Below are positions 2,201-19,266 of a DNA stretch of 34,663 nucleotides, one piece after another. Source of the DNA: a virus. The position numbers and the translations under genes were made by a program. Location of the stretch: the UHGV virus genome UHGV-0173140. One strand, given 5' to 3'. A model generated the notes under the pieces. The model had not been told where the DNA came from. It was given only the letters and a program-made list of their open reading frames with translations, and ran no database searches. Every line of letters starts with the position of its first letter. The stretch's first letter is position 1.

Positions 2201-3160
2201 TCACGGGATAACATTTATATCTTGAGGGAGAGAATAAGCAACCCGGCAACGACAATTAATCACGTTCGCGGCACTACCGTTAGGATCACGAGGAAACATA
2301 AGTGGTCCTAACGGCGTTGAAAACGGTCTGCCCATTGGTATCCAGCCATTCATTTCACCTGTGGAAATATGCGCGTCACGTGTCCGACCATCCTTCCTGT
2401 ACAACCAACGTTTTAATAACTCGTTACTGATCGACCCTGTAACCTGCCCTTGACGAATAGCCTGGTCCTGACCAACGGATACAGCACGAAGTGATTCAGT
2501 ACGCGCTATTGTCTCTGTGCGCTGTTTTACGTAACGCAAGCGTGTCTGTTCGATTATCTGGTCAATCTTCGCCTGTGATAGTTTCCCGGCACTTACAGCG
2601 TTCTTCGCACTGTCTGTAACAGTGGTCAGACTGTTCATATAACCTGCTTCACCTTTTTCCAGTGCTGATCGCAGACGTTGAACCGTCATTTCCTGCCGTG
2701 TGGTTAACCCTATTGATGATCGAAAATCACGGGCTATCTGACGCGGATTTCGTCCGGTTACCACACCCTGGTTAACAGCAATCTGAACAGCTTTGACTGT
2801 TTCATCACTGACTTCACGGATCAGTTGTCCGACATAGTTGTTGATATATGTGCTGACCTGTGGGGTGACCAGACTGAACACAACCGGACCTGTCACAGCC
2901 GCTTTCGGTAAAACCTGAACGACTACACGACCTGATTCGGCGATCGCATCTTCAATAACCGGGCGCAACTGTGCACTAAGTTCATCAGGGAGTGTTTCAA
3001 GAATAGGGAGTAGCCCGGCAATACCCTGAGTTTCAATGATGTATTCCAGGTTAGCTAACGACTCACTACGACGCACGTTTTCCCACACGACATCAAGTGC
3101 TTCGCGAATGCGAGCGTCATACTTGTCTGAAATATCCGGGTATGGGTCTTTAGTAGCCAT
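2201..3160 (-). CDS. head morphogenesis / minor capsid protein (SPP1 gp7 / Mu F-like)
   Basis: 319 aa with the C-terminal NCRCR motif typical of Phage_Mu_F proteins; sits downstream of terL and portal on the same strand. Confidence 0.65.
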   Translation of the reverse strand: MATKDPYPDISDKYDARIREALDVVWENVRRSESLANLEYIIETQGIAGLLPILETLPDELSAQLRPVIEDAIAESGRVVVQVLPKAAVTGPVVFSLVTPQVSTYINNYVGQLIREVSDETVKAVQIAVNQGVVTGRNPRQIARDFRSSIGLTTRQEMTVQRLRSALEKGEAGYMNSLTTVTDSAKNAVSAGKLSQAKIDQIIEQTRLRYVKQRTETIARTESLRAVSVGQDQAIRQGQVTGSISNELLKRWLYRKDGRTRDAHISTGEMNGWIPMGRPFSTPLGPLMFPRDPNGSAANVINCRCRVAYSLPQDINVIP

Positions 3161-3188
3161 AAAAAAGCCTCAGTTAACACACTGAGGC
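3161..3188 (-). terminator. hairpin plus T-run on the minus strand, immediately upstream of the MuF-like start
   Basis: Stem gcctcagt/ctgaggc (3167-3188) followed on the minus strand by tttttt (plus 3161-3166); the 3' arm contains the gagg SD of the downstream gene. Confidence 0.45.
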
Positions 3189-3203
3189 CGATTATATCAC
3201 ATG

Positions 3204-3347
3204 TTACGGGCGTGGAAGATTACGTTTTTCAGTTCCCTGAATGCGGTTCTTAACTTCGCGGATCTGTTCTTCCAGAAACTGTAACGCTTTTTGTGCTCGT
3301 TCGTAGTCTATTTCAAGTTCACGTAATAATTTTTCATCTTTTGTCAC
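3204..3347 (-). CDS. small hypothetical protein (47 aa, GTG start)
   Basis: Open frame VTKDEKLLRELEIDYERAQKALQF...; overlaps the upstream stop; weak aagga SD. Confidence 0.25.
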   Translation of the reverse strand: MTKDEKLLRELEIDYERAQKALQFLEEQIREVKNRIQGTEKRNLPRP

Positions 3348-3528
3348 GAGTATAACGTCCTTTAAAACCGGGTCTGACCATCAACTTACCATTCACCACC
3401 GCGTGAAATTCACCGTTGGTGTCATCCATATATTTATAAACTGTCGCTTTGTTACACCCAATCCGCCTGGCAAGTTCTGTCACGTTGCCATAAACGGTGG
3501 GTAGTAATTCAGAAATAGTTTGAGCCAT
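3334..3528 (-). CDS. small HTH DNA-binding protein
   Basis: 64 aa; TELARRIGCNKATVYKY resembles an AlpA/Cro-like helix-turn-helix. Confidence 0.45.
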   Translation of the reverse strand: MAQTISELLPTVYGNVTELARRIGCNKATVYKYMDDTNGEFHAVVNGKLMVRPGFKGRYTRDKR

Positions 3529-3710
3529 TATAATAGTTCCCCTCTGTCACATGCCACACGTTCGATTAACCGAATCGTGGCAGACCGTTTATCACCGTCA
3601 TAATGTTCTTCATAACGAAGATCGTCTGTGAAAACGATTTGTTCACGGTCACAGTGAATAACAATAATATCGTACTTGACCAGAAGGTCGAATGCCTGTT
3701 CACCGTTCAT
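3528..3710 (-). CDS. hypothetical protein
   Basis: Track ORF; start/stop overlaps with neighbours suggest translational coupling. Confidence 0.4.
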   Translation of the reverse strand: MNGEQAFDLLVKYDIIVIHCDREQIVFTDDLRYEEHYDGDKRSATIRLIERVACDRGELL

Positions 3711-4233
3711 CGTTAAGATATTCCTCTGCGTGTAATGCAGCGTAGCTGATCAGGTCTTCCAGACTGTCACGATGTGGTGTTTCAATGTTGGAATAGAAAC
3801 GAACCGCTTTTAATATCATCAGGAATAACCACCCTTCACCTGGTGTTAAGTCACGCCCAGTAATTGTGTTAAACGCAGCAACGACTTTAGCTGACGAACG
3901 TTCCTGACCAGACGTGTCATACTGCTTACCACGTTCTGTCAGTAGCTGTTCAGCCTGTTTCAGTAAATCAGACGCTGTTGATGGTTGTTGAACAGGTGTG
4001 AATGTACACCGACAATTTGAAGGTGGTGTAATTGTTTCAGTTCCGACGGTCATTGGTGACCAGGAACGTTTGTCTGTAGTACGAACAGCATAACCATGTT
4101 CGACTAACTGGTCGTCATTCCACCCGGTCGCAATGAATTCTTCGTAAGTATTACCACGGGCTTTCGGTGTCATTAACAGTTTTGACAGGTGTTGCTGGAC
4201 CACAAGGGCGTTTTTCAAAGATTTCAAAGTCAT
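3700..4233 (-). CDS. hypothetical protein
   Basis: Track ORF 3700-4239; start placed at MTLKSLK with ggaga SD; overlaps the 3' end of 4151-4453, so the start is uncertain. Confidence 0.45.
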   Translation of the reverse strand: MTLKSLKNALVVQQHLSKLLMTPKARGNTYEEFIATGWNDDQLVEHGYAVRTTDKRSWSPMTVGTETITPPSNCRCTFTPVQQPSTASDLLKQAEQLLTERGKQYDTSGQERSSAKVVAAFNTITGRDLTPGEGWLFLMILKAVRFYSNIETPHRDSLEDLISYAALHAEEYLNDER

Positions 4234-4453
4234 CAGCATTCTCCATAATTTGTGACGGATTTCTTAAAATTGGTGCGTACATTGAACCGTCAGACCATGC
4301 AAAAGTGTTTGTTGTCTTATTAAGAACAACACATGTAGCCCAGTCTGGCGCTTCACTCCAGTCTACTTGTTGTGTTTTCATTCGATAGTCAAGTGATTGT
4401 TTTTCACTTTCAGCATCATATGCAGGTATGTTCCACGGATGTTCAAACATCAT
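4151..4453 (-). CDS. hypothetical protein
   Basis: ATG 4453 with gagga SD 5 nt upstream; first gene of a minus-strand cluster. Confidence 0.45.
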   Translation of the reverse strand: MMFEHPWNIPAYDAESEKQSLDYRMKTQQVDWSEAPDWATCVVLNKTTNTFAWSDGSMYAPILRNPSQIMENADDFEIFEKRPCGPATPVKTVNDTESPW

Positions 4454-17834: not shown

Positions 17835-18081
17835 AAAACAAGCCGTCGCCCTGTTTGAAAAAATGGGGCGTTTTTACGTTGAACAACGACTGAATGAAAT
17901 TAGTGATTCAGCTACTGAACGTTATAACAATTGTCGTGATATTCCTGGTGGTTGGTGTGTGATTGATTTTATGACACCAGATGAACTATCAGAACGTCAC
18001 ATATTGTTATTGGCTTTGACACTATGTACCGATCCGGTTAACGAAGCACGACAAAGAATTTTGCAGAAACGTTTAAAATAA
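17818..18081 (+). CDS. hypothetical protein
   Basis: Track ORF overlapping the upstream gene. Confidence 0.4.
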   Translation: MLLESEKQAVALFEKMGRFYVEQRLNEISDSATERYNNCRDIPGGWCVIDFMTPDELSERHILLLALTLCTDPVNEARQRILQKRLK

Positions 18082-18115
18082 TTCTTGACGGATTACACTG
18101 TTTCAACCTATAATT
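18072..18115 (+). promoter_or_regulatory. conserved promoter copy (TTGACG 18085-18090, -10 tataat 18109-18114)
   Basis: cgtttaaaataattcttgacggattacac. Confidence 0.55.
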
Positions 18116-18149
18116 ACCTCATTGAAACAGACAAGTGAGGAACCGGAAA

Positions 18150-18338
18150 ATGAAAAACTTCAAAACTAAAGCAGAGTGTGAAAAATATATCGTAGCTGAA
18201 TATGGTGAATGTGCTTTTCAGGTCGGTGTAATTTTCGCTTATCGTGTAAAACCAATCGAAGCAAAAATGTTTGGTTTGGTTGAAGGTTCTTATATGTCCA
18301 GTAATGAATTTGATAAAGCAACAGGTCACGGTCGTTAA
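18150..18338 (+). CDS. small hypothetical protein (62 aa)
   Basis: Leader gtgaggaaccggaaaATG, nearly identical to that of 17661. Confidence 0.4.
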   Translation: MKNFKTKAECEKYIVAEYGECAFQVGVIFAYRVKPIEAKMFGLVEGSYMSSNEFDKATGHGR

Positions 18339-18544
18339 TGAATTATATTCCAAAATGCCTTCGTGAAATACCGAAGGTGAAACAAAAACCCCGCAAACAA
18401 GCGATAAAAGAAGCGAAAATTGAGGCTTTCAATATCGCCATTTCTATAATCAACGATAAATGTCGTATCGAAAAATCTGATCGCATGAAATCAAACATGT
18501 TTTCAGCAATGAGCGAAATAGCGAATTTACGTGATAAGCTCTAA
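18338..18544 (+). CDS. hypothetical basic protein
   Basis: Track ORF. Confidence 0.4.
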   Translation: MNYIPKCLREIPKVKQKPRKQAIKEAKIEAFNIAISIINDKCRIEKSDRMKSNMFSAMSEIANLRDKL

Positions 18545-18630
18545 AACGCCCCGTAAGTGGCTTTAATACCCTACCCTGTACCATCGCACCACTCAACCAT
18601 GTTTATCGAAAACGCAAACGGTTTCCGGCG

Positions 18631-19266
18631 CTATTTAAGTGCCTTCTGATACAGTTGCGCGATGTCGTCGATAGTTGCACCTTCAGGAACACTCTGAACC
18701 ACGTTACCAACCACGCCAGACAATTCCACACGGTCGATACTGTTCCCGGTGATTTTATCCAGTTGTTCAGACGCTTTTGCACGAGTTTTCGGGTCGAACA
18801 GTTCACGCGTCACCAGAATATATCCGCCCAGCATGTAACGTTTGTAGCAAACTACGTACTGTTGAAGATGGCTGGGGATATCGTCGGTACTGTTCACCCA
18901 CAGGTGTTTCGCTTCTGTGTCGTCTTCACCGGGGACGATTACGCGCTGACAATACGGTTCCAGTAATTCTTCAGCCGTGCTTGCCGCTCGTTTCCACCAC
19001 TCGACACGACTCGTTAACGATTCCCCGACAGACTCAAGCGCATGACTTCCCATCGCGTCCAGATAGTTCAACACCTTCGTATTCGACAGGAGGCGGTGTG
19101 CGGTCGTTGCAGCAGCTGCATCAGACGTGTGACCCGGATAAGCCTCTAAAACGCATCGCGTATTGCTGAAGCCGTTATTGACACGATCTAACCACAGGTT
19201 GGCGAATTTGAGCTGTTCCGGCGACAACTCCAGAGCAGCCCTTTTAGCCCGGTCTGAAATTTTCAT
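18631..19266 (-). CDS. terS: terminase small subunit
   Basis: LSPEQLKFANLWLDRVNNGFSNTRCVLEAYPGHTSDAAAATTAHRLLSNTKVLNYL matches the Terminase_2 N-terminal pattern; start at MKISDR (19266) with gggaga SD. Confidence 0.7.
   Translation of the reverse strand: MKISDRAKRAALELSPEQLKFANLWLDRVNNGFSNTRCVLEAYPGHTSDAAAATTAHRLLSNTKVLNYLDAMGSHALESVGESLTSRVEWWKRAASTAEELLEPYCQRVIVPGEDDTEAKHLWVNSTDDIPSHLQQYVVCYKRYMLGGYILVTRELFDPKTRAKASEQLDKITGNSIDRVELSGVVGNVVQSVPEGATIDDIAQLYQKALK

Follow-up and report, generated by a model that had tools for sequence, protein, structure and literature searches.

Probably inherited interleaving of small-gene blocks with the terminase, portal and MuF genes in a 9NA-like phage genome

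Phages related to Salmonella phage 9NA are already known for an unusual arrangement of their late genes: the genome paper on 9NA, published in 2014, reported that the assembly genes keep their canonical order and have an unusually high number of small genes scattered among them, and that the relatives are syntenic yet mosaic (PMC4153490). A full-text literature search on this interspersed layout returned nothing beyond that announcement. Two other described systems invite comparison, namely morons, the autonomous promoter-gene-terminator units that stand between late genes of temperate phages, and promoter-early stem-loop (PeSL) elements, which are mobile cassettes with a regulatory role, described in T4-type phages (Arbiol et al. 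2010, PMC2839356). Here we analyse a stretch of 34,663 nucleotides from UHGV virus genome UHGV-0173140 (the whole stretch is called the window below), in which the genes for the small terminase (TerS), the large terminase (TerL), the portal and a MuF-like head morphogenesis protein are kept apart by blocks of small genes. In our interpretation, to which we assign a probability of roughly 0.85, this is the inherited interleaved layout of a virulent 9NA-like siphophage, in which only the contents of the blocks turn over.

Relatives were identified by megablast, with positions 1-24000 of the window as query against 50,697 phage records. Escherichia phages AVIO78A, PDP46, PJ16 and Bas82 as well as two 'Sashavirus' records align at about 95-96% nucleotide identity, with no more than 55-70% of the first 24 kb covered by these closest records; identity is 84-88% for Salmonella phages Sasha, Sergei, Solent, SP069 and 9NA and drops to about 80% for Klebsiella phages. 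The window is collinear throughout with the 9NA-like phages and shows the similarity and synteny expected of Nonanavirus/Sashavirus. Because of these megablast identities and the collinearity with AVIO78A, PJ16, PDP46, 9NA and Sasha, the window is an ordinary 9NA-like siphophage (Nonanavirus/Sashavirus) of E. coli. The database records run reverse-complemented with respect to the window, and their position 1 corresponds to window position ~19541. An assembly artefact or chimera is ruled out, as at least eight independently sequenced genomes are collinear with the window.

All four genes lie on the minus strand in the canonical order TerS, TerL, portal, MuF, and the calls made in a preliminary description of this DNA are borne out by Pfam, PHROG and Protein Data Bank (PDB) matches. 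TerS (18631-19266, 211 amino acids) matches PHROG 51 (8e-11) and is identical in amino acid sequence (100%) to the TerS annotated in AVIO78A, PDP46, Sergei and Sasha. TerL (12206-13969, 587 amino acids) matches PHROG 2 (5e-17) and the large-terminase nuclease domains 8dkr and 4idh in the PDB (1e-10), with a Pfam Terminase_6N match just under threshold, and is 96-100% identical at the amino acid level to the annotated TerL of its relatives. The portal (7050-8405, 451 amino acids) is recognised by Pfam Portal_Mu (5e-24) and PHROG 113 (1e-65), and the MuF-like protein (2201-3160, 319 amino acids) by Pfam Phage_Mu_F (5e-10) and PHROG 2468 (3e-68).

With gene starts set by homologues, the gaps measure 4.66 kb between TerS and TerL (13970-18630), 3.80 kb between TerL and portal (8406-12205) and 3.89 kb between portal and MuF (3161-7049). 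The last two agree with the 3.8 and 3.9 kb given previously; the 4.3 kb given for the first gap was too short, having been derived from a longer GTG open reading frame (ORF) of TerL. Combined, the three gaps hold about 34 small ORFs in five transcription blocks, F (plus strand), E (minus), D (plus), C (plus) and B (minus), and a sixth block, A (plus), lies past MuF, beyond the region 2201-19266 to which the preliminary description referred. Its count of four cassettes was thus loose, while the interleaving of genes that it described is real. The late genes of AVIO78A that follow MuF (protease, capsid, tail, lysis) are essentially contiguous, and the fragmentation is therefore specific to the first four genes, TerS, TerL, portal and MuF.

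Synteny carries the main argument. We compared eight enteric relatives (AVIO78A, PJ16, PDP46, Sergei, Sasha, 9NA and the Klebsiella phages Carvaje and KP13-27), among other things by a tblastn matrix in which 44 ORFs of the window were searched against 11 loci of relatives. The interleaved layout is annotated in all eight, in the same gene order, and both extremes of gap size come from Sasha, 0.9 kb between TerS and TerL and 5.7 kb between TerL and portal. Across the eight, the late genes TerS, TerL, portal and MuF are 83-100% identical in amino acid sequence over their full length, and the dUTPase of the third gap is 66-100% identical. Genes, order, strands and the three occupied junctions are alike in the 9NA-like phages as a group (9NA, Sasha, Sergei, Solent, SP069, AVIO78A, PJ16, PDP46, Bas82), as are the RdgC and dUTPase blocks and the promoter positions treated below; the window differs from them in mosaic detail only, by three unique insertions and a 5-bp frameshift in a DUF6378 gene.

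The layout extends to more distant phages. Proteus Gorganvirus (PM-CJR, PmiS-Isfahan) and the Vibrio 'Nahant' siphophages (1.251.O, K457) possess homologous TerL, portal and MuF genes with small-gene blocks of 1.9-5.7 kb between them, but the intervening genes, dUTPase and the DUF6378 gene in Proteus apart, are unrelated to those of the window and the blocks are oriented differently. PM-CJR, whose TerL and portal share 60% amino acid identity with those of the window, has gaps of 2.5, 2.2 and 5.7 kb, and its order is TerS, eight opposite-strand genes, TerL, seven opposite-strand genes, portal, 13 genes, MuF. Homologues of dUTPase and the DUF6378 protein lie within its portal-MuF gap, as they do in enteric phages, and one further weak, partial match (27% identity over 46% of ORF 9204-9539) was found. 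In Vibrio phages K457 and 1.251.O (TerL 48%, portal 40%, MuF 39% amino acid identity), the TerL-portal gaps are 1.9 and 4.3 kb and the portal-MuF gaps 4.0 and 4.1 kb, filled with unrelated small genes; none of the 44 window ORFs searched by tblastn has an intervening counterpart in them. Sinorhizobium phage Susan (TerL 46%) shows the TerL-portal gap only. The outgroups, Salmonella phage SEN34 and Bordetella phage IFTN9 (TerL 38-41% amino acid identity), have the same gene order in a compact module, in which the four genes abut with a spacing of -1 to 16 bp, compared with 3.8-4.7 kb in the window. Against these two phages, the late module is indeed unusually fragmented, as had been stated.

Since interleaving is found in eight enteric relatives, in Proteus and in Vibrio phages, with much of the content kept in place, the gross layout is, judged from gene order, ancestral, and it is previously published, being stated in the 9NA genome paper (PMC4153490), rather than a product of repeated recent insertion. 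The interleaving would have arisen before the enteric, Proteus and Vibrio branches separated, and would have persisted since. The preliminary description had proposed repeated cassette insertion at gene boundaries and had itself named an interleaved order with conserved content in related phages as the alternative, an ancestral layout; this is what the comparison reveals. What survives of its proposal is gain and loss of genes on a small scale inside the blocks, not the insertion of whole blocks.

That four separate mobile cassettes recently entered a formerly compact late module is accordingly extremely improbable, even if the compact outgroup modules, the promoter or terminator at every block junction and the few single genes unique to the window are what one would look for under such a scenario. 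The same junctions are filled in all eight enteric relatives, in Proteus and in Vibrio, the content is largely orthologous and collinear, and the GC profile across the blocks resembles that of the late genes; recent insertion of whole blocks is refuted by the synteny comparison. Pfam and PHROG scans that covered most, not all, ORFs of blocks A to F gave no match to a transposase, an integrase or a homing endonuclease (HNH, GIY-YIG, LAGLIDADG), and self-mobile elements are rejected on this ground. Sasha has an annotated homing endonuclease adjoining TerL, which the window lacks at this place.

A different objection is that the junctions are persistent hot spots, which tolerate insertions and were filled independently by the enteric, Proteus and Vibrio lineages. 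The window and the Vibrio phages have no intervening gene in common, Proteus shares only dUTPase, the DUF6378 gene and the weak partial match to ORF 9204-9539, and the block between TerL and portal is co-oriented with its neighbours in Vibrio, opposite in Proteus and mixed in the window. Gap sizes that vary from 0.9 to 5.7 kb across the group, and the single gap of Susan, would also fit. Nevertheless, we consider independent filling unlikely. All three junctions are filled in every member examined, for which common descent is the more parsimonious explanation; dUTPase and the DUF6378 gene occupy the matching gap in Proteus and enteric phages; and small phage genes change fast, such that no homology would be expected at 48% TerL identity even under common descent.

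The junctions themselves are marked by a conserved element. Copies of the 17-mer TTAAAATAATTCTTGAC occur 14 times in the window at no more than three mismatches, where 0.22 are expected, and the full element of about 30 bp, (T)TTAAAATAATTCTTGAC(G/A)nATT(G/A)C, is nearly invariant. Copies lie on the plus strand at 589, 4485, 6254, 8476, 14034, 15971, 17585, 18073, 31930 and 31993, and on the minus strand at 302>286, 25108>25092 and 26652>26636, together with a variant at 12168>12150 that came from a search for repeat families. The form of the promoter family can also be written TTTAAAATAATTCTTGAC(G/A)nATT(G/A)C, followed by TAnnnT at 17-18 nucleotides. When the 14 copies are aligned, the -35 hexamer and 13 bases upstream of it are invariant or nearly so, and TAnnnT follows at 17-18 nucleotides in 12 of them. 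By these features the elements are predicted sigma-70-type promoters with an UP-like A/T tract, and conservation beyond the -35 hexamer suggests that they may contain a phage regulator site in addition to the promoter.

These putative promoters head block A (589), block C (4485), block D (8476), block F (14034) and block E (12168>12150), with internal copies in block C (6254) and block F (15971, 17585, 18073), which agrees with the earlier characterisation of the intervening genes as promoter-headed, for the plus-strand blocks and for block E. For none of TerS, TerL, portal and MuF did the motif scan of the window find a co-oriented copy immediately before the gene. The copies at 25108>25092, 26652>26636, 31930 and 31993 fall in the replication region, whose genes encode a primase-polymerase/D5-type helicase, a DEAD-type helicase, an exonuclease and a PD-(D/E)XK nuclease. 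As the promoter is also present there, the block operons are most likely early or middle transcription units, to judge from this distribution. All enteric relatives carry copies at matching relative positions; the element is absent from the Vibrio relatives and weakly matched in Proteus. The replication protein itself (26670-29024, minus strand; 784 amino acids) contains both an NrS-1-type primase-polymerase helix-bundle domain and the helicase domains D5_N and DUF5906, and is neighboured by a ParB-HTH protein, an HD-domain protein, an Rv2179c-like exonuclease, a DEAD-type helicase and a DUF2800/PD-(D/E)XK nuclease.

Junctions coincide with terminators as well as with promoters, a correspondence that the preliminary description had proposed to check. 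An intrinsic terminator directly follows TerL (12198-12181, minus strand; fold -15.7 kcal/mol, z -4.45) and is annotated in AVIO78A too; another closes block E at its convergent junction with block D (10000-9981, minus strand; -17.3 kcal/mol, z -4.47); and a terminator predicted on both strands separates portal from block C (7022-7043; -13.6 kcal/mol, z -5.0). Immediately upstream of MuF lies a hairpin with a T-run (3189-3166, minus strand; -19 kcal/mol, z -4.2), where Sasha and Sergei have an annotated terminator and ribosome-binding site (RBS) at the matching spot. Because the 3' arm of this hairpin holds the GAGG Shine-Dalgarno sequence of MuF and the ATG comes directly after the T-run, terminator read-through and unmasking of the MuF RBS may be coupled. 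An extended -10-like sequence, TGATATAAT, precedes the 9-bp hairpin and T-run (3160-3203, minus strand). Totals from generic scans are no higher than those of shuffled sequences (45 versus 42 for promoters, 16 versus 18 for terminators), and only the specific conserved promoter element and individually folded hairpins were used as evidence.

The blocks differ in how firmly they are kept. Block F (14034-18544, plus strand), which converges on TerS, comprises about 13 ORFs and four promoter copies (14034, 15971, 17585, 18073) and includes an RdgC gene (16653-17576; Pfam RdgC, 5e-116) that the tblastn matrix finds in six of the eight enteric relatives. It is the most variable block among relatives, Sasha retaining only three genes there. 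Its first gene (14304-14990; PHROG 21347, weak DUF6931) has a duplicated RBS/start segment (14279-14311 and 14426-14458, 147 bp apart), which provides an in-frame N-terminal extension of 49 amino acids that is lacking in 9NA and Sergei, and the C-terminal third of the gene (14702-14990) is an Ala-rich tandem repeat (AARAAA...) with a periodicity of 9, 12 and 15 nucleotides. Block D (8476-9975, plus strand), divergent from portal, consists of a promoter copy and five small ORFs, part of which is common to all eight enteric relatives.

Block C (4485-7017, plus strand) contains the promoter copies 4485 and 6254, ORF 4561-4731, the dUTPase gene (4724-5227; Pfam dUTPase, 1e-18) and five more ORFs. 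The order of dUTPase, 5224-5553, 6005-6262 and 6325-6669 is kept in all eight enteric relatives at 52-100% amino acid identity; ORF 6685-7017 is present in six of the eight, and ORF 5550-6011 only in AVIO78A and, more distantly, in Klebsiella phages. Block A (589-2134, plus strand), converging on MuF, has a promoter copy and five ORFs, one of which (1075-1458) contains a Phage_VG64 domain. Products to which a name can be given are RdgC, dUTPase, NinH, the DUF6378 protein and the Phage_VG64 domain protein; the remainder are small proteins of unknown function.

The two remaining blocks lie on the late-gene strand. Block E (10009-12168, minus strand) has four to five ORFs, with matches to PHROGs 9288, 8329 and 9157, all of unknown function, and starts at the variant promoter copy. 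Block B (3204-4453, minus strand) comprises a DUF6378 gene (Pfam, 1e-6), two small ORFs and NinH (Phage_NinH, 6.5e-18); seven or all eight of the enteric relatives carry homologues of its ORFs 3204-3347 and 3528-3710 and of the split ORF 4151-4453, while by the matrix NinH is absent in Klebsiella phages and the DUF6378 part in Sergei and Sasha. The DUF6378 gene is one gene of 684 nucleotides in AVIO78A; in the window (3700-4453, minus strand) the deletion of 5 bp from a CAAAAC repeat has broken it up into the overlapping ORFs 4151-4453 and 3700-4239, and its 5' end is 75 bp longer than in AVIO78A. The split may reflect a pseudogene, an error in sequencing or a slippage site.

Their strand raises the question whether blocks E and B belong in part to the late programme, as accessory genes of packaging, head or tail, in which case the module would be less interrupted than it seems. 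ORF 11345-12043 of block E has a weak match (5e-4) to PHROG 15175, 'virion structural protein', its homologue in PJ16 bears the name 'lateral tail fiber chaperone', and Carvaje has at this position a gene without homology to it that is annotated as 'tail needle knob'; block B lacks the conserved promoter element and runs straight into MuF. Yet the names in PJ16 and Carvaje were transferred without support, a promoter copy of its own stands before block E, behind the TerL terminator, and the block is wholly missing in PDP46 and the Klebsiella phages according to the tblastn matrix, and thus dispensable for assembly. NinH and the DUF6378 protein of block B are non-virion functions, and four plus-strand blocks would separate the late genes in any case. 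We therefore consider it unlikely that these blocks belong to the late programme.

Turnover inside the blocks is evident on a finer scale. Comparison of the window with eight relatives gives 79 clusters of breakpoints in nucleotide similarity, 46% of which lie within 15 bp of a start or stop codon, against 11% at random (maximum 23% in 2000 trials). Breakpoints clustered at gene boundaries are the usual signature of phage mosaicism. About ten of the 79 clusters fall in promoter intervals, a share that is inseparable from the general enrichment at gene boundaries.

Three segments are specific to the window. The first (8861-9194, plus strand) contains ORF 8856-9191, which encodes 111 amino acids (PHROG 3163) and sits exactly between two conserved genes of block D. 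The 11 related loci contain no homologue of it, and phages gave no match at the nucleotide level; protein homologues are found only in unrelated Citrobacter, Vibrio, Acinetobacter and Aeromonas phages, at 40-55% amino acid identity. The second (17664-18068, plus strand) is a cassette with ORFs 17661-17834 and 17818-18081 between the promoter copies 17585 and 18073, both of which align, with their 5' untranslated regions, to one single promoter in Sergei and PDP46. Among the 50,697 phage records the segment has no nucleotide match and ORF 17818-18081 no protein match. The third is an insertion of 163 bp with an ORF of 56 amino acids (4569-4731, plus strand), detected by the search for repeat families and comparison with relatives; it is bounded by a 21-bp direct repeat (4548-4568 and 4711-4731) that represents the RBS and start codon of dUTPase and is present in one copy in the relatives. 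All three segments are in keeping with gains on a small scale, through recombination at regulatory sequences that are short and repeated.

Likeness to the PeSL cassettes lies in the near-identical strong sigma-70-like promoters placed among small non-essential genes; the 14 copies supply such a repeated promoter, with activity and timing predicted. The insertions and deletions by which PeSL-bearing phages differ from close relatives are bounded by repeats, and the cassette between 17585 and 18073 may be a parallel in the window. In contrast, a PeSL couples a stem-loop to its promoter, which the window does not: only the copy 12168>12150 directly follows a terminator, and the other copies have no adjacent predicted hairpin. 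The phage group represented by the window is, moreover, one of 55-58 kb siphoviruses, whose plastic zones lie between packaging and head genes and not in the hyperplastic regions of T4-type phages. The blocks do not qualify as morons, as whole blocks are found in all relatives; only the three small inserts are genome-specific, and one of the three has its own promoter copy.

According to the inherited-layout interpretation, TerS, TerL, portal and MuF would be isolated late-strand genes that alternate with short operons made up of small genes without a structural role (RdgC, dUTPase, NinH, the DUF6378 gene and many ORFans), most of which would start at the nearly invariant promoter with its A/T-rich UP-like stretch, TTGAC, a spacing of 17-18 nucleotides and TAnnnT. 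Block contents would change one gene at a time, as genes are gained, lost or replaced at gene boundaries, and some of this turnover would take place at repeated promoter and RBS sequences, which may provide short homologies for recombination.

Several points weigh against this interpretation. The 'early' timing is predicted from promoter type and gene content only. Two of the blocks, B and E, share the strand of the late genes, and block B, in which no promoter copy can be recognised, may be co-transcribed with those genes. The Vibrio branch has no intervening genes in common with the window, and hence common descent of the gaps is argued from parsimony there. For the cassette at 17664-18068, finally, a deletion in the relatives is not strictly distinguishable from an insertion in the window.

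It is also conceivable, if unlikely, that the interleaving is selected and not neutral: the promoter and RBS/start repeats would serve as recombination substrates that create and maintain long-lived plastic zones, PeSL-like although outside the T4 type, and early convergent transcription would in addition repress the late genes. Such convergent transcription over late genes would be possible because blocks A, D and F, three of the four plus-strand blocks, have no predicted intrinsic terminator before MuF, block E/TerL and TerS, respectively. A regulatory role of convergent transcription is speculative.

Other repeats accompany the fragmented region. The 10-mer CCCGTGGKWA occurs in 11 copies in the window, against 0.19 expected, nine of them on the late-gene strand (4160>4151, 5080>5071, 6518>6509, 12647>12638, 13143>13134, 14013>14004, 17010>17001, 19316>19307 and 26494>26485) and two on the plus strand (23292 and 31801). 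Its sites are coding (in several frames), antisense to genes or intergenic. It is enriched in all enteric relatives, not in Proteus, Vibrio or outgroup phages, and its core CCCGTGG is found 30 times in the whole AVIO78A genome, on both strands, against 3.6 expected. A function as late promoter was considered and rejected: two copies precede the starts of TerS and TerL by 35-41 bp, yet portal and MuF have none upstream, and others are scattered inside genes.

Moreover, an A/T-rich direct repeat of 100 bp (84% identity) with a TTATCT-N5-AGATAA palindrome is found at 384-483 and 19547-19646, upstream of the head-protease/capsid operon and of TerS, respectively, and thereby brackets the whole fragmented region. 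Both copies lie in divergent regulatory regions adjoining operator-like repeats, and there is no third copy near TerL, portal or MuF; the repeat may be a shared regulatory or origin element. At least six copies of GCACAACATGCAC(TA) cluster upstream of TerS (19368-19838), between TerS and ORF 19842-20612, and a related inverted pair, CTAATACAGAACGTGTATTAGCTG, lies at 497-593. Both look like iterons or operators (a pac, ori or repressor site). Perfect tandem repeats of 30 nucleotides (ACACCAGCGGCAGCACCTGTAGCAGCGCCT) at 34579-34663 run off the right end of the window, with related copies at 20445-20490.

As a discovery the layout carries little weight, because split head genes are a published hallmark of 9NA-like phages and occur in every relative examined. 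It is rather a worked example of how an architecture that looks like repeated insertion in a single genome can be old and stable. The comparison shows that in phages of Escherichia, Salmonella, Klebsiella, Proteus and Vibrio the junctions between TerS, TerL, portal and MuF have remained places where small genes can come and go, and the conserved promoter offers a concrete handle for mapping early transcription or for engineering payload sites in phages that are candidates for therapy.

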